Positions 1,987-61,789 of a DNA stretch of 64,000 nucleotides are shown one piece after another. This DNA is from an uncultured Methanosarcinales archaeon (lineage in GTDB: Archaea; Nanobdellota; Nanobdellia; Woesearchaeales; CAYMBN01). Position numbers and translations under genes: made by a program. The notes beneath the pieces are model-generated. The model was not told the origin of the DNA, did not search any database, and was given only the letters and a program-made list of their open reading frames with translations. Position 1 is the first letter of the stretch. Every line of letters starts with the position of its first letter. Where the stretch lies: NCBI GenBank assembly GCA_964388715.1, contig CAYMBN010000002.1, positions 80,704 to 144,703 of the forward strand, read 5' to 3'.

Positions 1987-2453
1987 TTAATACCTCTTAG
2001 CATTTTTTTGTTTTTTATTTTGTAGAAGACAAATTTACCTTGTCTTCTAGATTCGATGATGTTTGCGTTTTCTAGCACTTTAAGGTTAAGAGAAATAGTA
2101 GGCTGGGCTTTGCCTACGATAGAAACTAGTTTTGTTGCAGCTTTTTCTCCTTTTAGAAGGGAAAGAACGATTTTTAGTCTTGTTTCATCTGCGAGTGCTT
2201 TTAAAACTTTAACATCTTGGATGAGTGTAATTATGTTTTTATCTTTTATTTTGTAGAAAATGAACTTGCCTGATCTTCTTGATGTGATGATGTTTGCGTT
2301 TTCGAGAACTTTGAGATTGAGAGAGATTGTTGGTTGTGCTTTTTTGATGATTGGAACTAATTCAGTTGCAGCGTGTTCTTTTTTTAGGAGGGATAGAACT
2401 ATCTTTAATCTAGTATTATCTGCTAGTGCCTTTAATGTTTTTACCAGCTGCAA
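1983..2453 (-). CDS. Tandem-duplicated ArsR/SmtB-family winged-helix transcription regulator (two HTH domains in one 156-aa chain)
   Basis: Two about 75-aa repeats each match the ArsR HTH pattern (LKALADETRLKIVLSLL...ELV...AQPTISLNLKVLENANII.SRR.GKF.FYKI). Its stop overlaps the start of the downstream surface-protein gene as ATGA at 1983-1986. Confidence 0.6.
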   Translation of the reverse strand: MQLVKTLKALADNTRLKIVLSLLKKEHAATELVPIIKKAQPTISLNLKVLENANIITSRRSGKFIFYKIKDKNIITLIQDVKVLKALADETRLKIVLSLLKGEKAATKLVSIVGKAQPTISLNLKVLENANIIESRRQGKFVFYKIKNKKMLRGIK

Positions 2454-2537
2454 CTTTTTAGCCCATTATATTTATATACTTAAATATTTAAATATATAAA
2501 TATATAGCTTTATATATAAATTTAACTGTTTTTTTGT

Positions 2538-2668
2538 GGTTTGTCCCAAATCTCGTTCACTCAGCCAAAAATTCTATTAAAAGCAAGATATTGGCTGACG
2601 GTGCAGTCTAACGAATAGTATCCTAGCTCACTTGCCATTTGGCGACTTGGGACAAACCCATTTTTTTT
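2538..2668 (+). ncRNA. Candidate small structured RNA gene of about 120 nt. It is GC-rich, closed by a 12-bp terminal helix and followed by a T8 run.
   Basis: ggtttgtcccaa (2538-2549) pairs perfectly with ttgggacaaacc (2647-2658). An internal 8-bp hairpin is formed by tcagccaa (2561-2568) and ttggctga (2591-2598). A TATA-like tttatatat lies about 25 nt upstream (2508-2517), and tttttttt (2661-2668) follows. The element is about 45% GC against about 25% GC for the surrounding intergenic DNA. Confidence 0.4.
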
Positions 2669-2676
2669 GTAGAGAA

Positions 2677-4146: not shown

Positions 4147-4150
4147 GGTA

Positions 4151-10100: not shown

Positions 10101-12925
10101 AAGTTTGCATTACCTGTTAAATTATAATCTTCAGCAACACCACTATCATTATTGAATTTCATCATTAATGCCATTGAGGTTGAGTTGATTGCTAATCCTA
10201 ATCTATTGCTGCTGTTAGAGAAGTGTCCCCATTTTGTTGAGAAGGCTGTGCCTGTTATATGGCCTGAGCCCATTTGGAGATTGCCTGTCATGTTAGCTCC
10301 TGAAGTGTAAACAATGTTTGAACAGCTTCCTGAAGCTGAACAGTTAGTATTAGTATCTGTTATGTTTGTGTCAATGTCTGATCCGCAGCTTAATGTGCTT
10401 CCGTCATAGGTTAATTTGTTGTTGCCTGTGCATGTTGGAATGTTGCTTATGTTTTGGTATTGGACTGTGATTGCACCTGCATCACCATCATATACTATTG
10501 CACTACAACTTCCGCCAGCTGAACAATTGGTATCTGTTTTTGCAACTCCTGTTAAACTAGCGCCGCTTCCAACAAATGTTGTTGCGTTTATTGTTCCAAT
10601 TACTTTGAGTGTGTCAGTTGTGCTGTTGAATGTAAAGTTAGAGTCTGCGCTTAGTGTAGCGCCACCACTAAATTGTATTTCTGAGACAGAACCTGAAGGA
10701 GAGGCTGCTGCAGATTCACATGCAAGATTGCCTGCATTAATGTATAATCTGTTACCAGATGCGCAATTAGTGTCAAAGCTTATGTCAGCTTCTTCAACAG
10801 CATCATCAACAAAATAAGGAAATAATGTTACATTAATGTTTCTTACTTTTAATATGTCAGTGCTTTTGTTCCATGTGAAGTTTGCATCACTACCCATGCT
10901 TCCTCCATCATTAAATTGTACTTCTGTGTCAGAACCTGCTGGTGAGGCTGTTACACTTGTTAATTGACTTCCATTTCCATAAATTAATCCTGTTACATTA
11001 AGGTCATCAGCTACTTTAACTAATGTGGTTGAAGAACTTAATTCTAAGTCAGCTGAACTTTGGATAACACTTTTTGATTGACTATTACTATGATACATGT
11101 TTAGTTTTCCACCTGCTGGATCTGCTATATTAAAACCATTCATACTATCATTAATCAATATTGATCCACCTATTTCTAATTCATCTGTTGAAGCATTGAA
11201 TGTGAAGTTTGCGTCTGCATTCATGCTTGCACCGCCACTGAATTGTACTTGTGAGACAGAACCTGATGGGGAAGCTGATGCTGCTTCACATGCAAGATTG
11301 CCTGAACTGATATAAAGTCTGTTACCTGAAGAACATGATGTGTCAAAGCTGATATCTTTTTCTTCGATTGAATCGTTGCTTAGTTTGATTACTGTTGTTA
11401 CGTTTAGGTTGTTGACTTTTAATTCGTCAGTTGTGCTGTTGAATGTGAAATTATCATCTGAGCTGAATGAACTTGCATCGTCAGTGAATTGTATGAAACC
11501 TTCATTACCACTTGCTGATGTTGTTGTTGGTGTTGATATACAACTCCATGCACCGTTGTTGTGTTCTAAGATTTCATTACTACCACAAGCTCTTATTCTA
11601 AAGGTTGTAGTGTTTAAGATTAAACCAGAGCCATTGGTATAGGTTACATTAGTGTCAATATTATTTATACAAAATAATCCAGATGCATTGTATTTAAGTC
11701 TTTGATTGATGCTACATATTGGGAATTGTGTTTTATACTGGACATTTGAACAAGAACCATTAACTGAACAGTTGCCATCAGTACCTCCAGCATCACTTTC
11801 ACATTCCCATTCTGTGCTTGTTGTGTTGTATTTTAGGATTTCTGTGTCTGCACAATTTCTTAAACTAAATACTGTACCTGTTAAATTTAATCCTGTGCCA
11901 TTGGAGTAAGTTATGTTTGTGTCAATGTCTGATCCGCAGCTTAATGTGCTTCCGTCGTAGGTTAATTTGTTGTTGCCTGTGCATGTTGGGATGTTGCTTA
12001 TGTTTTGATATTGGACTGTGACTGCACCTGCGTCACCATCATAAACTATTGCACTACAACTTCCACCAGCTGAACAATTAGTGTCTGTTTTTGCAACACC
12101 TGTTAGTTGTGCTCCACTTCCATATAAATTGCCTGTAAAATTGATGTCACCTTGAACTTGTAATTCTTGAATATATTTTGTTGTTCCAATGCTTATGTAA
12201 CTTGCATTTGTAATGTTTGCATTGCCAAAAATAAGATTGCCTGTCATTCTTGATCCTGATTTATACATTACATTTGAACAACTTCCATCAACTGAACAGT
12301 TTCCGTCAGCACCTGAACCTGCTGCTTCACATGCAAGATTACCACCACTTATATATAATCTATTACCAGATACACATGATGTTGTAAATTGTACATCTAT
12401 TTCTTGAACAGAATCATTATCCAGGTCAAGGAATGCTCCTGATGCGTTTAGTTTGGTTGAAACAGAAAGTCCTGCTGTTGATATGTTGCCTGTTATTGTT
12501 ATGTTTGTGCTTGCATTGATGTCTTCTCCTTTTATTGTTGCATCTATAATGTCAGTTGTATCTATTGGACCTATTGTTGAATAAAATTGTTTTCTGTCTG
12601 TGCCTGAGAAATTAAGGTTTTCTGTGTTAACTTCTAAATCAAGATAGTAATATGTTCCATATCTTAAACTTAAGTCAACACTTCCACTACCAAGCATTAC
12701 ATCATAATAACCATTACTGATTGAGTTGACAAAGTCACTACTTGAATTATATAGTGGGGTTCCACCTGATGAATTTAAGTAAATCAAAACAGTAAGATTT
12801 CCAGTTGTAACTAGACTTCCACTTTGTGTTACTTTACCTTGTAATGCCATTAACTGATCAAGTGGATATGCAATAGGTAAAAATAATAAAATCATACACA
12901 TTCCAATGATTAATTTATTTTTCAT
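4151..12925 (-). CDS. Giant secreted adhesin-like surface protein (2924 aa) with signal peptide, three LamG domains, an LVIVD-repeat beta-propeller, fibre repeats and Cys-rich modules
   Basis: There are three LamG signatures (IDDLVLWNRTLSAQEI, and IDEVRIYNRTLSLTEI twice). About eight LVIVD-type repeats are present (KYAYVA...IIDVSNP). The VGIGT.TP...L.V.G fibre motif recurs. A 405-aa segment is duplicated exactly in tandem. Confidence 0.7.
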   Translation of the reverse strand: MKNKLIIGMCMILLFLPIAYPLDQLMALQGKVTQSGSLVTTGNLTVLIYLNSSGGTPLYNSSSDFVNSISNGYYDVMLGSGSVDLSLRYGTYYYLDLEVNTENLNFSGTDRKQFYSTIGPIDTTDIIDATIKGEDINASTNITITGNISTAGLSVSTKLNASGAFLDLDNDSVQEIDVQFTTSCVSGNRLYISGGNLACEAAGSGADGNCSVDGSCSNVMYKSGSRMTGNLIFGNANITNASYISIGTTKYIQELQVQGDINFTGNLYGSGAQLTGVAKTDTNCSAGGSCSAIVYDGDAGAVTVQYQNISNIPTCTGNNKLTYDGSTLSCGSDIDTNITYSNGTGLNLTGTVFSLRNCADTEILKYNTTSTEWECESDAGGTDGNCSVNGSCSNVQYKTQFPICSINQRLKYNASGLFCINNIDTNVTYTNGSGLILNTTTFRIRACGSNEILEHNNGAWSCISTPTTTSASGNEGFIQFTDDASSFSSDDNFTFNSTTDELKVNNLNVTTVIKLSNDSIEEKDISFDTSCSSGNRLYISSGNLACEAASASPSGSVSQVQFSGGASMNADANFTFNASTDELEIGGSILINDSMNGFNIADPAGGKLNMYHSNSQSKSVIQSSADLELSSSTTLVKVADDLNVTGLIYGNGSQLTSVTASPAGSDTEVQFNDGGSMGSDANFTWNKSTDILKVRNINVTLFPYFVDDAVEEADISFDTNCASGNRLYINAGNLACESAAASPSGSVSEIQFSGGATLSADSNFTFNSTTDTLKVIGTINATTFVGSGASLTGVAKTDTNCSAGGSCSAIVYDGDAGAITVQYQNISNIPTCTGNNKLTYDGSTLSCGSDIDTNITDTNTNCSASGSCSNIVYTSGANMTGNLQMGSGHITGTAFSTKWGHFSNSSNRLGLAINSTSMALMMKFNNDSGVAEDYNLTGNANFTVYDYSGSGHNGTFYDNGTTLDSVHSSTSGKFSTGGLNFDGKDDYIKFNTDIFKSATAGTITAWIKTSSTDLGGAILTYTNLGASDDYFTISVLSNGKLETNHRSSAATDRLNSVGTVTGDTWYHVAFVSDGSDYSYYINGVNQSLTAEQGSNSGRWFADLDGGGPVYTNFIGKFDRSSGHGTFFNGTIDDLVLWNRTLSAQEIYQEYIADTEHINHDENLKRIYIDENQSLTVFGDLNIGTNESAAKSNINVTGNVTAKYFIGNGSQLTNVGTTYDNGSGLILNTTTFRIRACGSNEILEHNNGAWSCISTPTTTSASGNEAYIQFADDASSFSSDANFTFNSTTDELKVSSLNVTTVIKLSNDSIEEKDISFDTSCTSGNRLYINAGNLACEAASASPSGSVSQVQFSGGASMNADANFTFNASTDELKIGGSILINDSMNGFNLADPAGGKLNMYHSNSQSKSVIQSSADLELSSSTTLVKVADDLNVTGLYYGNGSQLTGITATVTDVWVNTSGDTMTGNLTMGDNYILNSTSIKGVSTQGLLLYMPFEDADSGNQSLTKDWSGNSNDGTLNHLHESDWIDGQVGKALDFDGENDSIDLTGFTATGGLYTFSFWVKYHGGTGSGDMLFDSQTNRLALNYNQSNDLAFYDGSWQQFGSSPSNNVWHHIVYAFNATKGLAYVDGIQLGTAKTYDAPNLTGSIAIGSKNDGANHFFNGTIDEVRIYNRTLSLTEIKTLYQMGINDHQEIGGSWVSRDDVYTNNNGSVGINTTTPTNTLKVQGDINFTDLIYGNGSQLTDVIATPGGSDSQVQYNDVSSMGADANFTWDEATDTLSVGSLLVNGSMNSFKVAGGAAGNINMYYSDMFTKGVIESSSGDLELTTTSGTVQLTDDLNVTGLYYGNGSQLTGITATVTDVWVNTSGDTMTGNLTMGDNYILNSTSIKGVSTQGLLLYMPFEDADSGNQSLTKDWSGNSNDGTLNHLHESDWIDGQVGKALDFDGENDSIDLTGFTATGGLYTFSFWVKYHGGTGSGDMLFDSQTNRLALNYNQSNDLAFYDGSWQQFGSSPSNNVWHHIVYAFNATKGLAYVDGIQLGTAKTYDAPNLTGSIAIGSKNDGANHFFNGTIDEVRIYNRTLSLTEIKTLYQMGINDHQEIGGSWVSRDDVYTNNNGSVGINTTTPTNTLKVQGDINFTDLIYGNGSQLTDVIATPGGSDSQVQYNDVSSMGADANFTWDEATDTLSVGSLLVNGSMNSFKVAGGAAGNINMYYSDMFTKGVIESSSGDLELTTTSGTVQLTDDLNVTGLYYGNGSQLTGITASVTDVWVNSSGDILTGEFNLSGSLRTNASGANVISSISGQVLDGLKEVYVQGQYAYVTASTNNSFSIIDISDKKRPIIVSTYENATLLDDARGIFILGKYAYVAGYTADRFSIFDVSNPINISYISTVVVNGANEVFVQGKYAYLSTGAGNTINIYDISDPNNILFLSTLSEDNVGGVYAQGKYVYTVADDDHEFFVIDVSIPSSPVIVGSLVNSTHLPSAYDVYVSGSYAYVACLAGGVMSIVNISNPTNPNIVGTYDDVATGAQYSDITVQGDYAYLTDLSDDEFYIIDVSNKTNPTQVLRKKDANFFDSVRGLFVDGKYIYTTSLDDDMLTITELDGIRTPTLSTGSLEASSINVKENMIVGHNIYAGDSIVVGDRGIMTSGDLSVAKNVNVTNNVSATYFIGDGSQLSGITATDLYVNESGDTMSGHLDMGWNQITSVNSINWSVNNENLTIYNNFGKYILGSTTNISLDAIEGGNGQVEIWDKLQLSADLEVDSTDLFVDVSENKVGIGTATPNQELHVVGTTNITENLFIGGNITSSGADFAEMFDSDEKLQPGDVVCLTTDYKVKKCDSKANPAVAGVVSEKPTIIGNSQNGKYAVGIVGIVKTKVKGPIKSFELLTTSSKKGYAEKASINDFGAILGKAMQPCYKSECKINVLIGLR
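6213..8642 (-). repeat. Perfect tandem duplication with a 1215-bp period (405 codons) inside the 2924-aa gene
   Basis: The segment 6213-7427 appears identical base-for-base to 7428-8642 (lines 6241ff versus 7456ff). Flanking partial copies at about 6113 and about 8543 are diverged. Confidence 0.8.
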
Positions 12926-23400: not shown

Positions 23401-24310
23401 TGGTTATATTATTGTAATAAATATTACCACTATGGGAATCATATTCATTAAAAACTATACCTGAACCGTCCCAGCTAAATGTTGCTTCGCCGTCTGGGTC
23501 AGGTGCGCAATTAAATATTGTATTATCTTTTACAGTAATATTTATTACTTCTTGTAGTTCTATTCCTCTTATAGAATTCCATATTACATTATTTGAGATT
23601 ATAGAATCATTTATTTCATAAATTTCAATTGCAGAGTCTGTTGTACTATCTGAAAGAGTGTTATTTTCTATATGTACACTATCTAAAGGACCATCAAGAT
23701 CTATAAGAGGATTACCTGGACCTGTAAATGTGTTATTTCTTATAACTATATCCTTATTATCTAAACCATAACCTGCTTCAGTAATCATAAGACCATTGCT
23801 ACAGTTAACAAATGAATTATTTTGGATTAATAAATTTGTTATTCCAGTTGCATAAACTGATCTAAAACCAGCAGCATTACCACCATTAACATTACAACCC
23901 TGAATAGTTATGTTTGTTAATAATTGAGTAAATGAATTTTCATAGATTCGTATTACGTCTCCACCAGAAGGACCAGCATTACTTATTGTATTTCCTTTAC
24001 AATCTAGTGTAACATCACTGGAATTAATAAAAATACAATAGGCAGAATTCATAGTTATTCCAGTACTTAAATTATAAATTCCTGGTGTAGTGATTTCAGT
24101 ATCACATGCAGTTATCTCTGTTTCAGCTATGCCAACAGCCATTCCTGTTATTTTTGGTGTTGTAGTTATTGCAGTATAAAACATAGTAGATAATAAGAGG
24201 ACTGCGATAGTTGCAATTATGTTATGTTCTAATTTAATGATATGTGCTCTATCTAAATGATGTTTTCTTTTTCTCATTCCCTTTTTTGATTTAATGCTTT
24301 TTCTTTGCAT
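20483..24310 (-). CDS. Membrane-anchored adhesin-like protein (1275 aa) with an N-terminal signal-anchor, right-handed parallel beta-helix (PbH1/pectin-lyase-fold) repeats, four Ig/PKD-like repeats, an acidic Glu-rich linker and a C-terminal domain
   Basis: Beta-helix repeat motifs (IRNNTFTG, IENNTLSD, ISNNVIWN, KDNTIFN) are present. A repeated roughly 95-aa unit reads P.SG..FNYTVTYTDANN..P..I.V.ID...Y.M...D..D..Y..GK.Y.Y...L....H.Y.F.ASDG. The linker is G7SS followed by EEEEEEEPIEEEEEPVEEEEPEE. Confidence 0.6.
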   Translation of the reverse strand: MQRKSIKSKKGMRKRKHHLDRAHIIKLEHNIIATIAVLLLSTMFYTAITTTPKITGMAVGIAETEITACDTEITTPGIYNLSTGITMNSAYCIFINSSDVTLDCKGNTISNAGPSGGDVIRIYENSFTQLLTNITIQGCNVNGGNAAGFRSVYATGITNLLIQNNSFVNCSNGLMITEAGYGLDNKDIVIRNNTFTGPGNPLIDLDGPLDSVHIENNTLSDSTTDSAIEIYEINDSIISNNVIWNSIRGIELQEVINITVKDNTIFNCAPDPDGEATFSWDGSGIVFNEYDSHSGNIYYNNITSCTYGMGIGQSIRDIQIYHNNIYGNTLQIRTEQAGGNVRGVNISNGSQGNYWGHAACPYFTGGGAQDSDTWVAIDSFPYDQPYASGSWPAPPASCGSQPEVTDNVGSPNVNTGNVQPTSGNQFTSYVFTATYTDDDDDAPTSMNVIINTTGTVAMVQRDPTDTTYTDGKDYLYNTTLAIGNHSYNFSTSDGTYSVVAMGDNAVGIEVVGQVEPTLASGSVSPTSGPINTVFNYTVTYTDANNIGPNGSIQVVIDDNPYSMTECDPGDAMFNDGKNYYYTTNSTTLSTVGSHSYYFNASDGTNITTTSTTNLPIIVNSAPTYSSAGVSPTSGTTSTNFNYTVTYTDANNEAPDTINVTIDGTMYPMAEIDATDTTYSNGKGYYYNQTLTAAAHTYSFTASDGTDTSSSASTSGPSVPYCGDSTCNGAETCTSCQADCGACPTEETPTTTSSGGGGGGGSSIAGHVVNTQEVSEDQESEIQEEEEEEEPIEEEEEPVEEEEPEENETILFAPDEERPTLIFSVPDDIELYQEFEAKVFIGNAKSLTDLEFSINYDSNYLTLTEVEKSGFLQDFNFDYTINEAETQDLISSLKSILTKTNSEVSITADQQTEEIISGSGYLATIKFKPINPGTMLLNFDDIQFSNTSSTDIEVITEEIEIEVIGNVSENMKNIEAYTEKELFLISDDNWQKIFTFISATIWTQNNQINKYPFLIYHKNGNIIDLDSTISFINDYNPTRITLIEDSSEDFDTLLASATSISTDKIQKISLNNYFTYWESFGDIVYVNSDYELAMTASVYASLKNIPLVIKDSITDNENIFTQKNVITINTQCPQTSTSCQDISSLTQLQQEIIEITGTDKVILINQKDIGFTIQEDYLPLKTSSTIKNLYSSTSLSAPILAAAKHEIIIFTNVDQTQQTKICEKNLKTREHFELVIQDIENNINTLFNTNPKYLTILGSPIAIPDSDFEMCVGETT

Positions 24311-27300
24311 TTTTTCTTATTTTTTTATTGTGTTTTTTATGTTTCCTTTTCTTGTTTCTTTTTTTTGGTTTTTTTTGAAAAGTTTTTAACTTTTCTAAAC
24401 CTTTCTTTGAAAGTTTCTTTTTTGTTTTGTGTTTATGTTTCTTTTTTTTGGAAACTTTGGTTTTTTGAGAATGTTTTTTGTGTTTGTTTTTCTTCTGTTT
24501 TTTTGATTTCTTCTTCTTCTTTTTCTTGGTTGTTTTTCCTTTGGATAATTCTATTGTTAGGTAAGTTAAAACTATGATTGATGTGATAATTAAAGTCCAG
24601 ATAGAAGGTTTTTCAGGTGAAGTAAAAACACTTAGTAACATTGCTTCTAGATCAAGTTTTTCAAATTCTTCTTCCTCTTCTTCTAGAGTTTCTTCTTCTA
24701 TTTCTTCTTCAGGAAGAGCTGTTTGATTTTCTTCAGCTTCTTTTTCAATAATTTTTGTTGTGGCAATTGCAAAATAACTGAATCCAGGAGTTGTTGCTTT
24801 GTATATGGTATAATTATTGTTTTCAGAAATTATTTTTGTAGGAAGATTATTCCATTTACTGTTTTTGTATCTTTTTAATACAATGTCTGTTTTATTTACT
24901 TTATTTTTTTCTAGCCATTCTTTTGAAACTTTGAATTGAATTTCTGCATTTTCTATTACACCATCTACTAAATTTTTGGTTCTACTTACTTGGGCATATT
25001 TGTAAACAAGAGTTTTTATTTTTCTACGTGTTTCAGGTGCTTGTGTTAACTCTATAACACTGATTTGTACATTTTTTAATTTATTCTTGGTTGTAGCTTC
25101 TAATTTTGTGATTGGAATTTCTTCTTTGTCAGGGGACATTTCTAATGTGTCACTAGCTTTGATTGACGTCCAAAGTTGAGTTGACTTTTCTCCTTTAATT
25201 GTTGGTTCTTCTATGACAAAACCATCTCCGCTGCTTGATGAACTTGATGATGATGTTGATGTTGAAGTTGATGTACTTCCTGCAACATCTGTTGTGTAAT
25301 TTGTTGAGTTTGAGTATGTCATTACGTTACTATTTTTATCAGAACATCTTACAAATAAGGTTCCTGTGTTGTCTGTTGTGAAGCTGAAATTAGTAGTATG
25401 GCTAAGGGTTCCTGTTGTTGAAAATGCTGTCATATTACCATAATATAGGTTTGAAGTGTTATAAGCGCAATTTGCATGTTCATTTGTTGTTACATTTAAT
25501 ATTAATATGACTGTTGATGTGCCTGTTCCTGATGCTGTGTAATTTAGATCTGTTATTATTGGGATTGTTCCATCTTTGATTGAAAAGTTTCTTGGAGAAC
25601 TAATAGAGCTTCTTTGGTTTTGATCAGTACAATTTAATGTGTAGTTATAAGTTCCGTTGAGGAGATCACTGTAGTTATGCATGTGTGTATAACGTACCCC
25701 TACATTAGTAAAGTTTGTTGTATTTATTGTTCCTGATTGAACATTGCCTGTTGCGTTTGTTATATTATATCTGCAGAAGGTTGTGTTTGGATTTGCTTCC
25801 CATACATCTGCAGAAACTTGAACGAAACTATCTGCTGATTGGTTTGTATTATTTGTTGGTCCTGTTATGTTTATTGTTGGTGCAACTGTATCATTTGCTA
25901 AGCCTGCTCCTGATAAATGCGGTACGTAAGTTGTTACATTTAATGAACCGTTTGTGTAACATGCTGCTGTTATATTGCCAACAGTGCTTGGAGCTGTGTT
26001 GCCTGTACATTGAGCTAACTTGTAAACATTGTGACCAAGGTCATCGTCTACATACATTACTTCAAAGTCTTTTAATGTTTCGTTAAATACAATTGTTGTT
26101 GTATTATAATAAGTATCATTTAGGAAACTGCTCATGTTTTGGAATAAAACTAATTTTGTGAAGTTTGTTCCTGATTTGTTTTTGCTTAAGTTTGCTGGTA
26201 GAGAATGTTTACTTACAACAATTGTAAAGTCTGTTCTGTTCCAGTTTGCTAACGATGAGTTGAAGCTTGGCATTGTTACAGAATAGTTGTCTGTTGTTGA
26301 TGCGTTAACTTCAAATTCCATACTTACTGAATTATTCATCCAAGCAACACCACTTAGTTCTGTACCTGATGAGTTTTTGATAGAAACGTTTACAACTCCT
26401 GTATTTCCTGTTTCAATTGAGTTAGCTCTTTCTGTTATGTTTTCTTGTCCTATTACTCTAAATGTTCTTGATACTTGGGTTGCTAAGTTACTTGCTTCAT
26501 CTTTTACATTAAATACTACTGTGTGTGTTCCTCCACTAATATTATAAATTGTAATGTTAGTTGCATTTGCTGTTGTGGTAAGTACCCATTGACCAGAGTC
26601 TACTGAGAAGTTTGATAAAGAAATGTTTGCTTCTGTTACACTATAATTAAATGTTACATTTCCATTTGCATTTGTTATTATTTGATTGTTTGTTGGAAGT
26701 GTTACATTAATTATTGGAGCATCATCATCTATTGTGAAAGTGATTCCTGGACTTGTTATTGATGTGGTATTAGTGTTGTTTGCAGTGTCAACAACTGTTA
26801 TATTAAGCACTTGATCTGAGCCTAGAGTAATTGTTCCATTCCAGGTAGAGTTAATAGATTTATTTAATGTTGTTCCTTCTACAACTACTGTGGTTATACT
26901 TGTTTTTAGGTCTGTTGCATTTACTGTTGCTATAACTGCAGTTGATGTTTGTACATAACGGTCTGAGATAGTAAAATTAAAGATTGGAGGAGTGTTTTCA
27001 ATTATAAATGTATAATTAGTACTATTGAATGCACTGTTTCCTGCATTATCATAAGCAAGACAGTTCCAGATAAAAGTACCATTTTTCAGTATGTCTAATG
27101 TTCGGTTTGTTGAGTTGCTTGTACCTGTTATGGTTGCAGTATAGTTTAGTGCCCATGATCCTGTTGAGTTTGTGTAAAAGCTTACATTAGTCAAGTTTTT
27201 ATTATCAGTGAGACTACAATTTAAGTTTACAGAATAATTTGAAGTATTATAATTGTTTACAGGGCTTGTTAGTCTTACTATTGGTGCTGTTTGATCTACG

Positions 27301-30300
27301 TCAACAGTAATGTTGTAAGTTGTACTTGCTCCTATGTTTCCTGCATTATCAGAACAGTTAACAGACCAGTTGTAATCTGCATTAGCTAATGATTGAATAA
27401 AGGTTAAATTAGCTATTGATTTATTAATGCTGCTGTTGGTTTGATTAACTGAATTATTAATTATTAAACTGCAATTGTCAATATTTAAACCATCTGTTAC
27501 ATTGTAGAAGAATTTTATGTTTCTGTTTGAAGTATTTTTGGTGTTGTTTGTAGGTCTTATTAAAGTAACTGTTGGTGCTGTGGTTTCAACAGTCAATGTG
27601 TAATTACTACTGCTCCAGTTTCCTTCACTATTTTGGTCATAAGCAAGACAACCCCATTTGTATGTGCCAACTGTTAGTGCACTTATTGTGATATTGGTTG
27701 AGTTACTGGTACCTGTTACATTTCCAGTGGCATTTAATAACCATGACCCTGTTGTGTTGGTGTAGAAACTTATGTTAGTTAAGTTAGTATTATCGGTTGA
27801 AGTACAGTTAAATGAAATAGATGTTTGAGATGTGTTGTAGTTGTTAACAGGACTTGTTAGATTTACTGTTGGTGGAGTGTTTGTTACATTAACAGTAAGA
27901 TTGTATATATCACTGTTATCTACATTACCAGCAAAGTCTGTACAATTGACAGACCAGTTATGTATTCCATTTGGAAGAGTTTGACTAAATGGAATACTAC
28001 TTACTGCTTTGTTGATTGTAGTATTAGTTACATTTATTGTTTTGTTTAAAATTAAAGTACAATTTTTTATACTTGATAATGCGTCTGTTACATTGAAATA
28101 AAAGTTAATGCTTTGACTAGTGGTATTAAGTGTATTGTTTGGAGGTGTTACTAGAGTTACTGTTGGGTTTGCTCTGTCAAATGTTATTGTTTTATTTGAA
28201 TTGTTCCATGCACTGTTTGAATTACTATCAACGCACAGAACATTCCAAATAAATCTTCCTTGTGGGAGGTTATTAAGTGTTATGTTTGTTAAAGCACTTT
28301 TTGTAGGGCTACTAACTGTTTTGTTTAGTTGCCAAGTACCTGTGAAATTAGTATATAAACTACAATTACTTACTGTTCCATCATCTGTTACAGTTAAATT
28401 AAATTCAAGAGAAGTTACTGTTGTGTTGAAATTATTTTCAGGATAGTTAAGTACTACAACTGGTGATGAAACAGGATATATTTGTTCTGTTGACCATGTA
28501 CTTGCTTTTAGGCTAGAGTCAATTGTTTGAACTGCCCAATAATATGTTTGGTTACTTATATTCAATAAAATGTTTGTGTTGTTTAGCATGTTACCAAACA
28601 TACCTTGTGGTGGGGAGTTGCTTGTGCCATATTCACCACTGACAATATTATTTGCACCTGAGGAATTTCCCACTCTTAGGTTATAATATAATGTTCCGCC
28701 TTGTGTATCAGAAGCGCCTGACCATGATAAGTTAAGTCCTGTGGTATGGTTGCTGCTAAATGTGATTGGTGCATTAGGAATATTATTGTCTGATGTTATT
28801 GGATTAATATAAATTGTTGAATTATCACGAACTTGGTCTCCAACTAAAATTAAATCAAGATTATTATCTCCATCTAGGTCTGTTAATAATCCTGATCCTT
28901 TTTGTACTGTACCACTTGAGCCTGAAGTTGGTAAAATTTTTCCTGATATATTATCTTGGATAAATCTTGAACCTGTGTTGTTGTAAAGAAGTACACTATC
29001 AGCAGTAGTGCCCCCTGGTACAAGTACTAAATCAACTTTACCATTATTATTATAATCTCCTGGATAGATTGCAAGTTCTCCAGTTGCTGTGAGGTCTGTT
29101 ATCCAACTAGAATTATAATAGAAACTTGTTTTGTTGTTAAAGTATATATCTAATCCATAACTTCCACTGAATTGTCCTGAAACAGCTAAGTCCATCCAAC
29201 CATCATTATTAAAATCAGCTACTGCTGAGAATGGGTGTGTGTTACCTGATTGGTATAATCTTAAACCAAATGAATAAGTTGTGTTAAGTTTGAATTCTGT
29301 TTTATTATTTGTATAAACTTGGGCTGTAGTAGTAGTTATTATAACTAGGTCAAGGTAGTCATCATTGTTAATATCAATCAAATGGGCTGTACCATCTGTG
29401 GTTCTTGTTAAATTATTTTGCCATGGAAGACTTTCACTAAAGGTTGTTCCATTGTTTGTGTAAACTTTTGATGAACTATTACTATTATTTTCTTGTCCTA
29501 TTATTACTAAGTCAATGTCACCATCAAGGTCAATGTCTCCTTGTACAATTGCTGCGTCTTTTACTTGTGTTATATTTTCTTGCCAAGTAAAGTTTTCTTT
29601 GAATGTTGTTCCATTGTTTATGTATATTTTTGTACTTGAACCTCTACCATCATCACCTGCAATAATTATATCTGTATCATTATCATTATCAAAATCTCCT
29701 AATGCAATAGAAGGTGTAGTAACATTGGTTATATTTTCGTTCCATGTTGTGTTTTTATTGAATGTATTACCATTACTTGCATATACATTAGCAAGTGGAG
29801 CAGTTCCATTGTCTCCTAGAATTATGAGGTCAAAGTTTCCATCTTTTAAAAAGTCTCCAACTGCAATTGCAGGTGTTTGTACACCAAGTAAGTTAGCATG
29901 CCATGATGCATTTGTTGAAAAAGCTTCTATGATGCTTGATGAAAGATTTAAGAAACTAATGTTGTTAGAACCATTACAAGTTACATTAATGCCAGCATAG
30001 AATGTACCTGTACTTGAATCGCTTACATTTAATTTGAATGTTGTTTTAGAGTAAGGACTAACACCTTGGATAGATGATACATTTGTTGTTAAATTATCTA
30101 AACTGTGATAATTAGTTAAAGTGATAGTCATATTGTCACTTGATGCTTGGCTGTTGATTATATCAATATAATAATTACCTGTTGTGTTAACTCCAACATA
30201 ACCATGGAAAGTAGAATCATTAAATCTTCCTGAGCCTCTTGAAGTGCTTAATGATAAACTTATCCCTGCTGTTATTGATGTTGATCTTATTGGTAAATAA

Positions 30301-33300
30301 TCTATAAATTCTTCTCCACCTCCACCACCTACACTTTCTTCAGATGAATTGTAAATATTATCACAAATTCCGTTAGCATTTGCATCATAACAACCTTCAA
30401 TTGGTGTATCTTTAGCAGTCCATCTGTTACCATAATTAGAATTGTTAAAAGTGAGGTTGTTTGCATTTTGTGTTCCTGTAAATGAACCAGAACTAACAAA
30501 AGTGTTTCCTGTGAATACAGTGCCATTGGATACTCCGTCTGGACCCATGTTAAAGTTAAAATCTATTTGACTTCCTGAGTTATCTACATTGTTGAATGTG
30601 TTATTATAAAAGAAGTTGTCATGTGAACCATCAAATCGAACTCCTCTTACTTGATTTTTGCTTATATTTGAATGGTTAAATGTGTTGTTATGAGATCTTA
30701 ATAGATAAATTCCTTGGTCAGTGTTATTGATTATGGTTAGGTTGCTCAAGAAGCTTAGGTTTGTACCATTTAGGTAAACACCTATTGTAAAGTTTGAGAT
30801 TGTACAATTTTCAATTGTGATATTTTTTCTTCCACTTATATTGATACCATAAAAATATCCGCCACTACTTGAACTAGTACCATTACCTGTTAAATTATAT
30901 CCTTGGCAGTCTAATCTTATGTTATCAGCTGAGATATGGAAACATGTTGAAGCGTTTGTAACATTTTGTGTTAATTTATAATTTCCACCTGCTGTGTTTA
31001 AATTTTGACAATTATTGATGTTAGTACTAGTATCAAATTCATAGGTTTGTTCTGCTGACCATGCACTTCTTTTTAAACTAGAATCAATTGTTTGGACAGC
31101 CCAATAATATGTTCTATCACTTTGATTTAATAGAACTTGGGTATTGTTATGCATGTTACCATACATACCTTGTGAAGGGGAGTTACCTGTTCCATATTCA
31201 CTAGATATAATATCATTTCCACCTGAAGCTGTTCCTACTCTAATATTATAATATAGTGTTCCTCCTTGTGTATCAGAAGCACCTGACCATGATAAGTTAA
31301 GTCCTGTAGTGACATTATAATTAAATACAGAAGGTGCTGTTGGTGCATTATTGCTGGATATTCTGTTATTAGTATAAACTTTTGAAACTGCTCCAGAATC
31401 ATCTCCAGCTATGATTAAATCAAGATCATTATTACCATTAATATCAACAAGTAATGGTGATCCTTTTTGTATTCCCATTCCACCTACACCAGTATTGCTT
31501 GGCAAAAATTTTGCATATGTTGTGTCAGAAGTGAAAACCTTTCCAGTGTTATTGTATACAAGAACACTTTCCCCAGTATTACCTGAAGATACAAGTATTA
31601 AATCAATTTTACCATCATTATTATAATCTCCAGGATAGATTGCTACTTCTCCACTTGTTGAGAAACCTGTTACCCAACTTGAATTATAATAAAAACTTGT
31701 TTTGTTATTAAAATATACATCTAATCCAAAGCTTCCGCTAACTTGTCCTGATACTACAATATCCATCCATCCATCATTGTTAAAGTCAGCTGATGCCATA
31801 TATGGATGATCATTACCTGATTGATAAAATCTTAAACCATTTGAGTAGGTTGTGTTAAATAAGAATGCTGTTTTGTTGTTTGTGTAAACTTGTGTTATTG
31901 TTGTTGTTATTATAACCAGGTCAAGGTAATCATCATTGTTAATGTCAATTAATTGGGCAGTACCATCTGAAGATCTTGTTAAGTTTTCTTCCCATGAAGA
32001 GTTTTCATTAAAGGTTGTTCCATTGTTTATGTAAACTTTGGATGAATCATTGCTATTGTTTTCTTGCCCTATTATTACTAAGTCAACATCACCGTCTAGG
32101 TCAATGTCACCTTGTACAATTGCTGCATTTTGTACTGGTGTGATATTTTGTTGCCATGATAAATTTTCATTAAAGCTTGTTCCATTGTTTATGTATATTC
32201 TTGTGCTTGCACTACTAGTATTGAAACCAGCAATAATCATGTCTGTATCATTGTCATTGTCAAAGTCTGCTAGTGCAATGCTTGGGGTAGAAACATTGAT
32301 TAGGTTTTGGCTCCATGTTGTATTTTTGTTTAATGTTGTTCCATCACTTGTATAAATATTCATAAGAGGATTACTACTACCATCATCTCCAACAATAATT
32401 ACATCAGGATTTCCATCTTTTAGGAAGTCAGCAGATCCAATTGCAGGTGTTTCTGCAGCAACTAAATTAGTTTGCCAGGTTGAACTTGCAGCGAAAGCTT
32501 CAATAACACTTGTTGAAAGATTTAAGAAACTAATGTTGTTAGAGCCATTACAAGTGGCATTAATACCTACAAAATATGTGCCATTGGTTGAGTCACTTAC
32601 ATTTAATTTAAATGTTATTCTTGAATAAGCACCAACATTCATAAATCCTGTTTGGTTTGCTGTTAAAGTGTTTAAACTATTGTAGTTTGTTAAAGTGATA
32701 GTTACATTGTCAGTTGATGCTTGGTTGTGAATTACATCAATATCATAAGTACCATTATCATTAATTGCAACATAACCATGGAAATTAGTATCATTATATT
32801 GTCCTGTTCCATTAGATGTACTTAAGGATACTGTTATTCCTGCTGCAATTGACTGTGATCTTATTGGAAGATAATCAATAAATTCACTGTCTCCACCTCC
32901 ACCACCTCCGCTTGCAACAGTGGAATTGTAAATCTCATCACAGATTCCATCAACATTTGTATCATAACAAGTTTCAGCAGGAGTGTCTTTAGCAGTCCAT
33001 CTATTACCATAATTAGAATTATTAAAGGAAGCATTATTTGCGTTTTGCATACCATTAAAGCCAGTTGCATCAGTAAAAATGTTACCTGTAAATACAGTAC
33101 CATTTGATTTACCACTTGAACCCATATTAAAGTTTATATCAATTTGATTTCCATTATTGCCATTGTAAAATGTATTATTGTAAAAGAAATTATAATGTGC
33201 TCCATCAAAGTAAACTCCTCTTGCTGAATTATAACTTATATTTGAATGATTGAATGTGTTGTTGTTTGATCTTAATAAATAAATTCCTTGGTCAGTGTTG

Positions 33301-33686
33301 TTAAATATAGTTAAGTTACTAAAGAAACTTAGATTTGTATCATTTAAGTAAATTCCTCTTGTGTAATTGGTTATTGTACAATTTCTAACAGTAATATTTT
33401 TTCTTTTGGTAATGTTGATACCATAGAAATATCCTTGATTGCTTGTGCTAGTACCATTGCCTGTCATAGTATATCCTTGACAATCTAGAATAATATTGTC
33501 TGCTCTAATATCAATACATGTTGCACTACTGTTTACATTTTGTGTTAAAGCATAGCTTCCACCTGATGTGCTTAGATTTGTACATGCATTTATATTGATA
33601 GCATAAGCAAATGAATTATAAAGTAGGAAGACAAAAATTAAAATAATCAAACTCTTCAAATTTGTTTGAATTTTGTTTTTAACCAT
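24291..33686 (-). CDS. Giant surface protein (3131 aa) with signal peptide, two copies of a beta-helix (NosD/PbH1-like) + FG-GAP/VCBS propeller + FN3-like unit, Ig-like repeats, a Ser/Thr stretch, a PGF-like motif, a C-terminal TM helix and a roughly 90-aa Lys/His-rich tail
   Basis: The beta-helix N-terminus (ININACTNLSTSGGSYALTQNV...CIDIRADNIILDCQGYTMTG) is duplicated as STNINNCQNLNTAGGNYKLTQNV.... FG-GAP motifs (DFDNDNDTDMIIAG, DIDLDGDVDLVII) are present. The C-terminus reads TTPGFSYFAIATT ... SIWTLIITSIIVLTYLTIELS followed by K-rich sequence. Confidence 0.65.
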   Translation of the reverse strand: MVKNKIQTNLKSLIILIFVFLLYNSFAYAININACTNLSTSGGSYALTQNVNSSATCIDIRADNIILDCQGYTMTGNGTSTSNQGYFYGINITKRKNITVRNCTITNYTRGIYLNDTNLSFFSNLTIFNNTDQGIYLLRSNNNTFNHSNISYNSARGVYFDGAHYNFFYNNTFYNGNNGNQIDINFNMGSSGKSNGTVFTGNIFTDATGFNGMQNANNASFNNSNYGNRWTAKDTPAETCYDTNVDGICDEIYNSTVASGGGGGGDSEFIDYLPIRSQSIAAGITVSLSTSNGTGQYNDTNFHGYVAINDNGTYDIDVIHNQASTDNVTITLTNYNSLNTLTANQTGFMNVGAYSRITFKLNVSDSTNGTYFVGINATCNGSNNISFLNLSTSVIEAFAASSTWQTNLVAAETPAIGSADFLKDGNPDVIIVGDDGSSNPLMNIYTSDGTTLNKNTTWSQNLINVSTPSIALADFDNDNDTDMIIAGFNTSSASTRIYINNGTSFNENLSWQQNITPVQNAAIVQGDIDLDGDVDLVIIGQENNSNDSSKVYINNGTTFNENSSWEENLTRSSDGTAQLIDINNDDYLDLVIITTTITQVYTNNKTAFLFNTTYSNGLRFYQSGNDHPYMASADFNNDGWMDIVVSGQVSGSFGLDVYFNNKTSFYYNSSWVTGFSTSGEVAIYPGDYNNDGKIDLILVSSGNTGESVLVYNNTGKVFTSDTTYAKFLPSNTGVGGMGIQKGSPLLVDINGNNDLDLIIAGDDSGAVSKVYTNNRISSNNAPTAPSVFNYNVTTGLNLSWSGASDTQGGTLYYNIRVGTASGGNDIISSEYGTGNSPSQGMYGNMHNNTQVLLNQSDRTYYWAVQTIDSSLKRSAWSAEQTYEFDTSTNINNCQNLNTAGGNYKLTQNVTNASTCFHISADNIRLDCQGYNLTGNGTSSSSGGYFYGINISGRKNITIENCTISNFTIGVYLNGTNLSFLSNLTIINNTDQGIYLLRSHNNTFNHSNISKNQVRGVRFDGSHDNFFYNNTFNNVDNSGSQIDFNFNMGPDGVSNGTVFTGNTFVSSGSFTGTQNANNLTFNNSNYGNRWTAKDTPIEGCYDANANGICDNIYNSSEESVGGGGGEEFIDYLPIRSTSITAGISLSLSTSRGSGRFNDSTFHGYVGVNTTGNYYIDIINSQASSDNMTITLTNYHSLDNLTTNVSSIQGVSPYSKTTFKLNVSDSSTGTFYAGINVTCNGSNNISFLNLSSSIIEAFSTNASWHANLLGVQTPAIAVGDFLKDGNFDLIILGDNGTAPLANVYASNGNTFNKNTTWNENITNVTTPSIALGDFDNDNDTDIIIAGDDGRGSSTKIYINNGTTFKENFTWQENITQVKDAAIVQGDIDLDGDIDLVIIGQENNSNSSSKVYTNNGTTFSESLPWQNNLTRTTDGTAHLIDINNDDYLDLVIITTTTAQVYTNNKTEFKLNTTYSFGLRLYQSGNTHPFSAVADFNNDGWMDLAVSGQFSGSYGLDIYFNNKTSFYYNSSWITDLTATGELAIYPGDYNNNGKVDLVLVPGGTTADSVLLYNNTGSRFIQDNISGKILPTSGSSGTVQKGSGLLTDLDGDNNLDLILVGDQVRDNSTIYINPITSDNNIPNAPITFSSNHTTGLNLSWSGASDTQGGTLYYNLRVGNSSGANNIVSGEYGTSNSPPQGMFGNMLNNTNILLNISNQTYYWAVQTIDSSLKASTWSTEQIYPVSSPVVVLNYPENNFNTTVTSLEFNLTVTDDGTVSNCSLYTNFTGTWQLNKTVSSPTKSALTNITLNNLPQGRFIWNVLCVDSNSNSAWNNSNKTITFDRANPTVTLVTPPNNTLNTTSQSINFYFNVTDALSSIKNCTLILNKTINVTNTTINKAVSSIPFSQTLPNGIHNWSVNCTDFAGNVDNSDIYNLTVNVTNTPPTVNLTSPVNNYNTSQTSISFNCTSTDNTNLTNISFYTNTTGSWLLNATGNVTGTSNSTNITISALTVGTYKWGCLAYDQNSEGNWSSSNYTLTVETTAPTVTLIRPTNNTKNTSNRNIKFFYNVTDGLNIDNCSLIINNSVNQTNSSINKSIANLTFIQSLANADYNWSVNCSDNAGNIGASTTYNITVDVDQTAPIVRLTSPVNNYNTSNYSVNLNCSLTDNKNLTNVSFYTNSTGSWALNYTATITGTSNSTNRTLDILKNGTFIWNCLAYDNAGNSAFNSTNYTFIIENTPPIFNFTISDRYVQTSTAVIATVNATDLKTSITTVVVEGTTLNKSINSTWNGTITLGSDQVLNITVVDTANNTNTTSITSPGITFTIDDDAPIINVTLPTNNQIITNANGNVTFNYSVTEANISLSNFSVDSGQWVLTTTANATNITIYNISGGTHTVVFNVKDEASNLATQVSRTFRVIGQENITERANSIETGNTGVVNVSIKNSSGTELSGVAWMNNSVSMEFEVNASTTDNYSVTMPSFNSSLANWNRTDFTIVVSKHSLPANLSKNKSGTNFTKLVLFQNMSSFLNDTYYNTTTIVFNETLKDFEVMYVDDDLGHNVYKLAQCTGNTAPSTVGNITAACYTNGSLNVTTYVPHLSGAGLANDTVAPTINITGPTNNTNQSADSFVQVSADVWEANPNTTFCRYNITNATGNVQSGTINTTNFTNVGVRYTHMHNYSDLLNGTYNYTLNCTDQNQRSSISSPRNFSIKDGTIPIITDLNYTASGTGTSTVILILNVTTNEHANCAYNTSNLYYGNMTAFSTTGTLSHTTNFSFTTDNTGTLFVRCSDKNSNVMTYSNSTNYTTDVAGSTSTSTSTSSSSSSSSGDGFVIEEPTIKGEKSTQLWTSIKASDTLEMSPDKEEIPITKLEATTKNKLKNVQISVIELTQAPETRRKIKTLVYKYAQVSRTKNLVDGVIENAEIQFKVSKEWLEKNKVNKTDIVLKRYKNSKWNNLPTKIISENNNYTIYKATTPGFSYFAIATTKIIEKEAEENQTALPEEEIEEETLEEEEEEFEKLDLEAMLLSVFTSPEKPSIWTLIITSIIVLTYLTIELSKGKTTKKKKKKKSKKQKKNKHKKHSQKTKVSKKKKHKHKTKKKLSKKGLEKLKTFQKKPKKRNKKRKHKKHNKKIRKNAKKKH

Positions 33687-33924: not shown

Positions 33925-34099
33925 TTTAATAGTAATAATATGTGTGTATATTATTTATAAATGTTTCGGTTTTTTATGATTTTTTACATTTTTTACACAT
34001 TTTTTAACGTTTTTTAGGTATATTTTGTTGGAAATTTTAGCTTAGAATGGATTTTTTATACATACAGAAGATGTTATTGGTTGATAAAAGAAGAAAAGG

Positions 34100-34264
34100 A
34101 GGGAGTGCAGGGATTTTCGTTGTTTTTTTGTATCTCGAACCCTGGAATAGTCGGGATCTGTATTTCATTGGCATGAGCCTCATCATCCCAAAAACTATTG
34201 CAGCCGACCGCCATAACTTTGAAAAAAATTAACTTTTTCAATTTAGCCGCTTGGCCACACTCCC
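34100..34264 (-). tRNA. tRNA-Cys (GCA) carrying three putative introns: D-loop, canonical 37/38 (about 41 nt) and T-loop (about 20 nt)
   Basis: On the minus strand: acceptor GGGAGUG/CACUCCC; U8 G9; D-stem GCCA/UGGC; anticodon stem GUCGG/CCGAC; loop CU-GCA-A; T-stem CAGGG/CCCUG; T-loop UUCGAGA. The discriminator is U73, the tRNA-Cys identity element. The D-loop insertion forms the hairpin uugaaaaa/uuuuucaa. The plus-strand ORF 34047..34232 is spurious. Confidence 0.7.
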
Positions 34265-34370
34265 ATTACACAAAGTATTTTTCTTTATGTTTATTAATCT
34301 TTTTGTTTTAAAAAAACAAAAATTTTAAATAGTCATATGTTTAAAGTAGTGGTATAATATTAAAAACGAG

Positions 34371-56337: not shown

Positions 56338-56460
56338 GTTATCTAAACACCTCTTTTCCCTAGCAATCCTCTTTAGGGGATTGCCTGGGTTTTTATGTTC
56401 ATGCTATCACCTCTTTTTCCCTGGCAAAAGGCTTCGGCTTTTTGCTGGGGTTTATAATTA
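56338..56460 (+). promoter_or_regulatory. Two tandem paralogous hairpin elements, each with a CACCTCTTTTCC lead-in, a 9-12 bp stem-loop and a T-run. They may be small RNAs or tandem terminators.
   Basis: The first is cacctcttttccc-tagcaatcc-tcttta-ggggattgcctggg-ttttt. The second is cacctctttttccc-tggcaaaaggc-ttcg-gctttttgctgggg-ttt. Both are more GC-rich than the surrounding DNA. Confidence 0.35.
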
Positions 56461-56776
56461 CAAAATTTGACCGAAAAAGATATAAATAAGGTAGAAATAT
56501 CATAATTAATGCCCGTTACGAGAGTACCCAAGGGAACTTACGGCAAAGCCAAGTTATGAACTTGGGAGTTAGTATTACGGGCAACAAATTCATAATCAAA
56601 AATAATAGAACAAGATCATCATTATCATTAAATCACTTGAATAAAAAAAGATTTAAGATACAGAAATAAGTGTAAAATCTTGTTCTACAAAAATAAACTA
56701 GAGAAAGGTAAATCACATGTTCATTATTCATGATTCATTGAAGGAACTTTTTCTAGTTAAACGGAGGTAGAGAAAA

Positions 56777-61631: not shown

Positions 61632-61789
61632 GGACCCGTAGCCTAGTCTGGCAATCTTTTTGGCAAACAAAAAGTTTGGGCAAATAAGGCGACAGCCTTC
61701 TACGATCTTTCGAGGATAGCTGTAGATCGAGGGTTCGAATTTGCTAAAAGGTTCATTGCCTTTTTGTAATGAAAGTCCCTCCGGGTCCG
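61632..61789 (+). tRNA. tRNA-Arg (TCT) carrying three putative introns: D-loop (about 30 nt), canonical 37/38 (15 nt) and T-loop (36 nt)
   Basis: Acceptor GGACCCG/CGGGUCC with discriminator G; U8 A9; D-stem GCCU/AGGC; anticodon stem ACAGC/GCUGU; loop CU-UCU-A with intron CGAUCUUUCGAGGAU; T-stem GAGGG/CCCUC; T-loop UUCGAAU. A TATA (tttataaata) lies about 25 nt upstream and a T-run follows. Confidence 0.75.

Follow-up and report, generated by a model that had tools for sequence, protein, structure and literature searches.

We find that the 64-kb stretch of contig CAYMBN010000002.1 analysed here (the window) very probably carries a tRNA-Cys(GCA) gene that is functional in its Woesearchaeota-like DPANN host and contains three introns of the bulge-helix-bulge (BHB) type, at tRNA positions 22/23, 37/38, and 59/60. 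The gene occupies 34264..34100 on the minus strand, is 165 nt long, contains the full set of cloverleaf elements together with U73, and is cut by three inserts of 30, 42, and 20 nt into four exons. An earlier note on this DNA had described a 165-nt minus-strand tRNA-Cys(GCA) with a 7/7 acceptor stem, U73, G18G19, U33, and A37, all of which are read in the sequence. Its proposal that the extra sequence forms three blocks, and that these are introns, is upheld by BHB geometry, by the 73-nt spliced product, and by collinearity with homologs. We regard the comparative evidence as decisive.

The gene is laid out as GGGAGUG-UG-GCCA-AGCGGCUAA[AUUGAAAAAGUUAAUUUUUUUCAAAGUUAU]GGC-G-GUCGG-CUGCAA[UAGUUUUUGGGAUGAUGAGGCUCAUGCCAAUGAAAUACAGAU]C-CCGAC-UAUUC-CAGGG-UUCGAG[AUACAAAAAAACAACGAAAA]U-CCCUG-CACUCCC-U, with introns in square brackets. 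The acceptor stem GGGAGUG/CACUCCC is Watson-Crick paired at 7/7 positions and followed by U8, the D arm carries G18G19, and the anticodon stem GUCGG/CCGAC encloses the loop sequence CUGCAA with U33, the GCA anticodon, and A37. The T stem is CAGGG/CCCUG, the T loop begins UUCGAG, and the discriminator is U73. Exons and introns differ markedly in composition (64% GC in the exons versus 26% GC in the three introns pooled). The 5′ splice site of exon 1, placed after nucleotide 22 by enumeration of BHB positions, agrees with the uninterrupted D arm GCCAAGCGGCCAAGGCG of the homologous locus L173, and exon 2 is identical to exon 2 of the homolog at locus L125.

Joining the exons gives a 73-nt tRNA-Cys, GGGAGUGUGGCCAAGCGGCUAAGGCGGUCGGCUGCAACCCGACUAUUCCAGGGUUCGAGUCCCUGCACUCCCU, which ARAGORN calls as tRNA-Cys(GCA) and which holds U8, A14, G18G19, U33, U54U55C56, A58, and U73. 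Its mature D arm, GCCAAGCGGCUAAGGC, has a GCC/GGC stem with an A13·A22 mismatch (GCC-A…A-GGC), while the mature T loop is UUCGAGU, whose seventh base, U60, is the first base of exon 4, past intron 3. The GCA anticodon and U73 are the major identity elements for cysteinyl-tRNA synthetase (CysRS). Both are present here (G34, C35, A36, and U73), and U73 is invariant in 13 homologs. Coordinates of the tRNA-Cys gene parts, and of the introns in a second tRNA gene described below, are collected in Table 1.

Table 1. Parts of the tRNA-Cys(GCA) gene and introns of the tRNA-Arg(UCU) gene, in window positions
Feature	Position	Strand	Content
tRNA-Cys exon 1 (gene nt 1-22)	34243..34264	-	acceptor 5′ strand GGGAGUG, U8 G9, D-stem 5′ strand GCC, A13, D loop AGCGGCUA, A22
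tRNA-Cys intron 1	34213..34242	-	30 nt, site 22/23 (3′ edge of D loop), AUUGAAAAAGUUAAUUUUUUUCAAAGUUAU
tRNA-Cys exon 2 (gene nt 53-67)	34198..34212	-	D-stem 3′ strand GGC, G26, GUCGG, C32 U33 G34 C35 A36 A37
tRNA-Cys intron 2	34156..34197	-	42 nt, canonical site 37/38, UAGUUUUUGGGAUGAUGAGGCUCAUGCCAAUGAAAUACAGAU
tRNA-Cys exon 3 (gene nt 110-131)	34134..34155	-	C38, CCGAC, variable loop UAUUC, CAGGG, U54 U55 C56 G57 A58 G59
tRNA-Cys intron 3	34114..34133	-	20 nt, site 59/60 in T loop, AUACAAAAAAACAACGAAAA
tRNA-Cys exon 4 (gene nt 152-165)	34100..34113	-	U60, CCCUG, CACUCCC, U73; CCA not encoded
TATA-like box, putative promoter	34290..34297	-	UUAAUAAA, ~26-33 nt upstream of mature 5′ end, read from sequence
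T-rich tract, putative archaeal terminator	34086..34097	-	UUUUCUUCUUUU, just past the gene, read from sequence
tRNA-Arg intron 1	61652-61683	+	32 nt, site 19/20
tRNA-Arg intron 2	61703-61717	+	15 nt, site 37/38, strict BHB
tRNA-Arg intron 3	61740-61775	+	36 nt, site 59/60, H = UUCG/UGAA

The junctions were located by exhaustively listing the position pairs that obey the BHB rule, namely two 3-nt bulges, each cut after its second base, with a 4-bp helix H between them, an outer helix h, and an inner helix h′. The earlier note had proposed folding the junctions in search of such motifs, and a BHB or relaxed BHB can indeed be drawn at all three (cuts within bulges are marked below by a hyphen). 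For the 22/23 intron, H is GGCU/AGUU (4/4, with two G·U pairs), the bulges are AA-A and AU-G, h has 2 bp, and h′ is a 9-bp hairpin. The 37/38 intron has a relaxed BHB in which H consists of CUG/CAG plus C·A (3/4), h is the anticodon stem (6 bp), and the inner part is an imperfect hairpin. Of its bulges, AA-U and AU-C, the 3′ one is strict and the 5′ one lies inside an internal loop. The 59/60 intron is of a bulge-helix-loop type, with H of UUCG/CGAA (4/4), bulges AG-A and AA-U, the 5-bp T stem as h, and a loop in place of h′. The same architecture is seen in the second tRNA gene of the window, in the homolog at locus L139, and, by eye, in a tRNA at locus L064.

Unconstrained minimum-energy folding of the 165-mer recovers the four tRNA stems and the three H helices (-50.1 kcal/mol, z = -3.27). 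At the D-arm site we observe two competing precursor folds, a strict BHB with a 2-bp outer helix versus a cloverleaf-like arrangement in which GCCA pairs with UGGC by using the last intron base. Given these two folds and the helix-loop form, lacking an inner helix, at 59/60, the endonuclease must tolerate relaxed substrates, which implies an enzyme with broad substrate tolerance. Two other splicing registers were considered and rejected. A D-arm splice at gene positions 17/46 (H 3/4) would delete G18G19 and conflicts with the homologs, and an anticodon register at 66/110 leaves a 5-nt anticodon loop. The 37/38 placement given in the earlier note is correct, with uninterrupted homologs reading CUGCAAC across this site.

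Comparison with independent tRNA-Cys genes carries most of the argument. A search pattern covering the D arm and the anticodon loop, and allowing a gap of 0-30 nt, retrieved 14 tRNA-Cys genes of phages or bacteria that lack introns. In 13 of them the gap is 0, so that GCCAAGYGGYYAAGGCG is a common natural tRNA-Cys D arm. With the gap widened to 10-40 nt, the same pattern picked out of the metagenome collection, amid random matches, 12 distinct tRNA-Cys genes of archaea in which this D-arm site is occupied by an insert; these entered the spliced alignment described below. The D-arm introns of these homologs show no sequence resemblance to that of the window, but H and h′ form in every one of them, and the changes within H keep the pairing (U-A, U·G, C-G; G·U, G-C). 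Further introns accompany the D-arm intron in several of them: at 37/38 in L125, at 59/60 in L139, at 8/9 in L145 and L165, and at both 8/9 and 37/38 in L118, which is thus likewise a three-intron gene. The 37/38 introns of L125 and L118 stand in the same context as the window's. Across nine compared homologs, the mature sequences are identical to the window product at 53-64 of 73 positions (73-88%), the best being L125 at 64/73 (88%).

The three-intron tRNA-Cys gene of L118, a Woesearchaeota-like contig (~6429-6580, plus strand), lies directly upstream of the CysRS gene (6697-8052), beside genes for TFB, ribosomal protein uL16 (Pfam Ribosomal_L16), and ValRS, and the relatives of this CysRS bear Woesearchaeota or Nanoarchaeota names. 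Three additional loci, L173, L174, and L175, were fetched through CysRS alone and are hence unselected for introns. The tRNA-Cys of L174 has a D-arm intron and that of L175 has 8/9 and D-arm introns, both directly upstream of CysRS. In L173 the D arm is uninterrupted, and the gene, which shares an intergenic stretch with CysRS with a 100-aa open reading frame (ORF) between them, has one intron at 30/31. Five intron sites are thus represented in this tRNA-Cys family (8/9, 22/23, 30/31, 37/38, and 59/60), with one to three introns per gene. The combination 22/23, 37/38, and 59/60 was seen in none of the other homologs found (L102-L165 and L173-L175). Each window junction is uninterrupted in at least one relative, with ...YAAGGCG in L173, CUGCAAC in L123, L139, and L136, and GGGUUCGAGUCCC in most. 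With one to three introns at five sites, and unrelated sequences at the same site, the comparison shows fast intron turnover in Woesearchaeota tRNA-Cys, resembling the description given for Thermoproteales.

In the spliced alignment of 13 sequences the cloverleaf is 100% paired, with compensatory changes in 12 of 20 pairs. The alignment scores 0.546 for covariation, compared with 0.153 ± 0.023 for shuffles, of which 0/500 reach that value, and shifting the partner columns abolishes the signal. The tRNA-Cys locus is also present in other metagenome samples. Over 561 bases, a second copy, taken from a different metagenome (L001), shows a single difference, a G>A change at window position 34172 that falls on an unpaired base of intron 2; this is consistent with the intron model and weak on its own. 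Checked through EndoQ, relatives at ~70% identity do not keep the tRNA beside that gene.

The window has a GC content of 29-37% and encodes Topo VI A/B, LonB, NurA/HerA, Elp3, a Tyw1-type wyosine enzyme, a RIO kinase, and EndoQ. The closest relatives of its EndoQ and LonB are named Candidatus Woesearchaeota or Nanoarchaeota. The host is thus clearly archaeal, a Woesearchaeota-like member of the DPANN, a group in which protein-spliced tRNA introns are expected. An alpha4-type EndA with an L3 insert has been reported in DPANN alongside more disrupted tRNAs, in a survey that included one Woesearchaeota genome, and incomplete DPANN tRNA sets have been taken to point to undetected disrupted genes (Kaneta et al., PMC5829648).

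Genes of this build are poorly visible to current tools. ARAGORN reports no tRNA in the whole 64-kb window, intron options included, and lowered thresholds on the unspliced region gave nothing useful. Rfam finds nothing at the tRNA-Cys locus at gathering or permissive thresholds, and its tRNA model has no match up to an E value of 10 at either this gene or the tRNA-Arg gene described below. The expectation in the earlier note that standard finders would miss the gene is thus confirmed for the two examined, ARAGORN and Rfam.

Some observations weigh against a functional three-intron gene. Neither the window nor 1.1 Mb of fetched loci yielded EndA or RtcB, and a tblastn search of this DNA with a M. 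jannaschii EndA sequence, which offers a lead and is no test of absence, gave no match. The 37/38 motif is imperfect, with H at 3/4 and a loose 5′ bulge, and the outer helix at the D arm has 2 bp only. Among the homologs, the 12 from the metagenome collection were picked by a pattern demanding a D-arm insert, which biases intron frequencies and leaves the three loci fetched through CysRS as the only unbiased ones, and the splicing that underlies the covariation score fixed loops by template while leaving stems free. Our view of the genome is, in addition, limited to the window, which also favors the idea of a decaying pseudogene with accumulated insertions, translation being served by a separate intact tRNA-Cys elsewhere; the C·A mismatch and loose 5′ bulge at 37/38 would suit such decay. 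We nevertheless regard a pseudogene as very unlikely, as all stems are fully paired and the conserved bases intact, the three inserts all lie in BHB register, the locus is near-identical in independent metagenomes with its sole change in an intron, the tRNA-Cys genes that relatives keep beside CysRS hold one to three introns with no intact copy nearby, and the tRNA-Arg of the window is built alike. A cloverleaf-like arrangement arising by chance in AT-rich intergenic DNA has some initial appeal, since a loose descriptor (acceptor stem, T arm, U8, free insert lengths) gives ~2 matches per shuffled window and is not significant alone, and adding the D and anticodon stems still gives matches in 19 of 200 shuffles. 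A strict descriptor, which demands four stems, U8, U33, the T-loop motif, and a BHB-compatible splice for each over-long loop, matches at exactly two places in the real window (the tRNA-Cys gene and the gene at 61632), compared with 3 matches in 400 Markov shuffles of the window. With a product up to 88% identical to independent homologs and stems that covary, chance is effectively refuted by the alignment and almost certainly not the explanation.

It is also conceivable that the gene is real and that its junctions fall where the earlier note drew them, with a GCCA/UGGC D stem, a 9-nt D loop, a T loop UUCGAGA, and the third insert after position 60, between the T loop and the 3′ strand of the T stem. 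The minimum-energy fold of the precursor does pair GCCA with UGGC, and one phage tRNA-Cys among the 14 intron-less genes has one extra base at this place. The BHB ruler, however, places the cuts between A22 and G23 and between G59 and U60, every uninterrupted homolog has ...GGCYAAGGCG and UUCGAGU, and the other 13 of the 14 intron-less phage or bacterial genes show no extra base, which leaves the first-drawn junctions very little probability. The U of UGGC is accordingly the last base of intron 1, which sits at 22/23, the mature stem being GCC/GGC, and the third insert lies inside the mature loop UUCGAGU, at 59/60. A further proposal would give the 42-nt intron 2 a double role as a box C/D guide RNA, as is known for the Haloferax tRNA-Trp intron. 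Intron 2 contains GGGAUGAUGAG, a match to box C (window 34169..34190, minus strand), and has a weak match to the Rfam family snoPyro_CD (14 bits, E = 5.8). This score is far under the 45-bit gathering threshold; AUGAUGA is present, but the CUGA of box D, C′, and D′ are all absent, only 19 nt separate the C-like box from CAGA, pairing in the intron hairpin hides the motif, and the motif is missing from the 37/38 introns of L125 and L118. We thus consider a guide RNA extremely improbable and judge the box C-like GGGAUGAUGAG to be a coincidence. Self-splicing group I or II introns were rejected, the inserts being 20-42 nt against a core of at least ~200 nt and without an Rfam intron match at any threshold. 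The same applies to a split or permuted tRNA, the four exons being collinear within 165 nt on one strand.

For the functional tRNA-Cys gene, the course of expression may be sketched from what is established about tRNA splicing in archaea. The 165-nt precursor would be transcribed from the AT-rich TATA promoter UUAAUAAA and end at the T-rich tract after U73. EndA would then cut after the second base of each bulge, at six positions, and an RtcB-type ligase would join the exons. The CCA end, none being encoded, would be supplied by a CCA-adding enzyme, and CysRS would charge the product by way of its GCA anticodon and U73. In a genome of 31% GC, a TATA-like box such as UUAAUAAA is weak evidence for a putative promoter; the corresponding element of the tRNA-Arg gene is UUUAUAAAUA, about as far upstream.

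The second gene was found by the BHB-aware scanner and is a tRNA-Arg(UCU) at 61632..61789 on the plus strand, also with three BHB introns. It splices to a perfect 75-nt cloverleaf, its precursor folds with z = -5.16, and it has its TATA box (UUUAUAAAUA) upstream and a T-run downstream. Like the tRNA-Cys gene, it was missed by ARAGORN and Rfam. We observe no uninterrupted tRNA in the window or in the 10 kb beyond its end, and no further tRNA in those 10 kb. Among 80 loci of relatives, none places a three-intron tRNA-Arg(UCU) of the window's kind next to LonB; in L069, LonB is closely followed by an uninterrupted tRNA-Arg(GCG). In L103, L119, L133/L150, and L161, a tRNA-Arg(UCU) stands in tandem just upstream of tRNA-Cys. 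By eye, the tRNA-Arg(UCU) genes of L103 and L119 have D-loop and 37/38 introns, and the ends of their D-loop introns resemble those of the window tRNA-Arg (…AAUCUUUUU…GGCAA). In the window, tRNA-Cys and tRNA-Arg are 27 kb apart, and each has an additional 59/60 intron.

Within 80 Woesearchaeota loci (L006-L085, ~545 kb, not a random sample), ARAGORN finds three tRNAs only. The BHB-aware scanner adds an interrupted tRNA in L064 (1612-1794, plus strand, with a 59/60 intron and H of UUCG/CGAA) and confirms one in L084 (710-824). This suggests that many Woesearchaeota tRNAs escape standard finders. The two tRNA genes seen in ~74 kb here have three introns each, and it is possible, although we think it rather unlikely, that the genome-wide load lies above that of Pyrobaculum calidifontis, the current record holder with 71 introns in 46 tRNA genes (PMC8450103). 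If this were true genome-wide, it would represent a second, independent runaway gain of tRNA introns, in a lineage reported with a simple alpha4-type endonuclease plus L3 insert, and would put to the test the view that the breadth of substrates is not determined by the subunit type of the enzyme.

Archaeal tRNA genes hold three introns at most (PMC3239211, PMC8450103), and the sites 22/23, 30/31, and 59/60 are listed as non-canonical (PMC4090602). The remark in the earlier note that triple-intron tRNAs are known mainly from Thermoproteales agrees with PMC8450103 and PMC4090602. Among the closest known systems is the pre-tRNA-Cys(GCA) of ARMAN-2 (Candidatus Micrarchaeum acidiphilum), which, as drawn in Fig. 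1B of PMC3239211, has a 59/60 intron and shares with the window gene the isoacceptor, DPANN membership, the site, and a relaxed BHB that uses T-loop bases. In the account of the ARMAN-2 gene in that paper, there is one non-canonical intron and a three-unit epsilon2 EndA, whereas the window gene has two further introns and its lineage is reported with the alpha4-type EndA plus L3 insert (PMC5829648).

The tRNA-Pro(UGG) of Pyrobaculum islandicum, with introns at 25/26, 37/38, and 56/57 (PMC4090602), likewise combines one canonical with two non-canonical BHB introns, and the three-intron tRNAs of Thermoproteales are similar to the window gene in their D-arm and T-arm sites and in being missed by simple finders. 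Thermoproteales, however, belong to TACK, have an (alpha-beta)2 EndA with a Crenarchaea-specific loop, and are GC-rich, so that the window gene differs in phylum, positions, isoacceptor, and its genome of 31% GC. The pre-tRNA-Glu(UUC) of Methanopyrus kandleri (PMC5829648) resembles the window gene in having a relaxed D-arm BHB intron (HBh′, in the D loop) together with a 37/38 intron, and its D-arm intron is excised less readily in vitro than the canonical one (PMC5829648). It has two introns rather than three, and its host is a euryarchaeon with an (alpha-beta)2 enzyme without the specific loop.

Multi-intron tRNAs, a 59/60 intron in a DPANN tRNA-Cys, and disrupted Woesearchaeota tRNAs are thus already published, and the window gene adds detail and no new principle. 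For annotation, genes of such build escape ARAGORN and the Rfam tRNA model, with the result that DPANN metagenome assemblies seem to be without tRNA-Cys, tRNA-Arg, and others, and these apparent gaps encourage mistaken inferences of a reduced translation machinery or of dependence on a host. In addition, the strict, relaxed, and helix-loop BHB motifs are natural substrates for probing the range of the DPANN splicing endonuclease.

The tRNA-Cys gene lies within a 446-nt intergenic gap flanked by a small ORF heading a giant surface-protein gene and, on the other side, by a cupredoxin-like ORF. The giant predicted surface proteins of the window (24291..33686, minus strand, 3131 aa; 4151..12925, minus strand, 2924 aa) are rich in N-x-S/T sites. 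The 3131-aa protein has a long internal duplication, its N-terminal beta-helix-like module repeating ~870 residues on. Elsewhere in the window, a ~75-nt GC-rich stretch at 56510..56585 (plus strand) folds into a closed stem structure (-28.4 kcal/mol, z = -3.9) within a 578-nt intergenic gap; it has an AT-rich TATA-like box, GAUAUAAAUAAGG, ~25 nt upstream and no Rfam family match, and may be an unannotated small RNA. At ~56340..56460 (plus strand) there are two similar units, in each of which CACCUCUUUU(U)CCCU precedes a stem-loop with GGG(G)UUU at its end. Finally, the region past the end of the window differs between two metagenome copies, L169 and L170, at locus positions ~1700-5050, where a P-type ATPase and a hydrolase are present in L170 and not in L169, which indicates a strain-level rearrangement near the LonB side.

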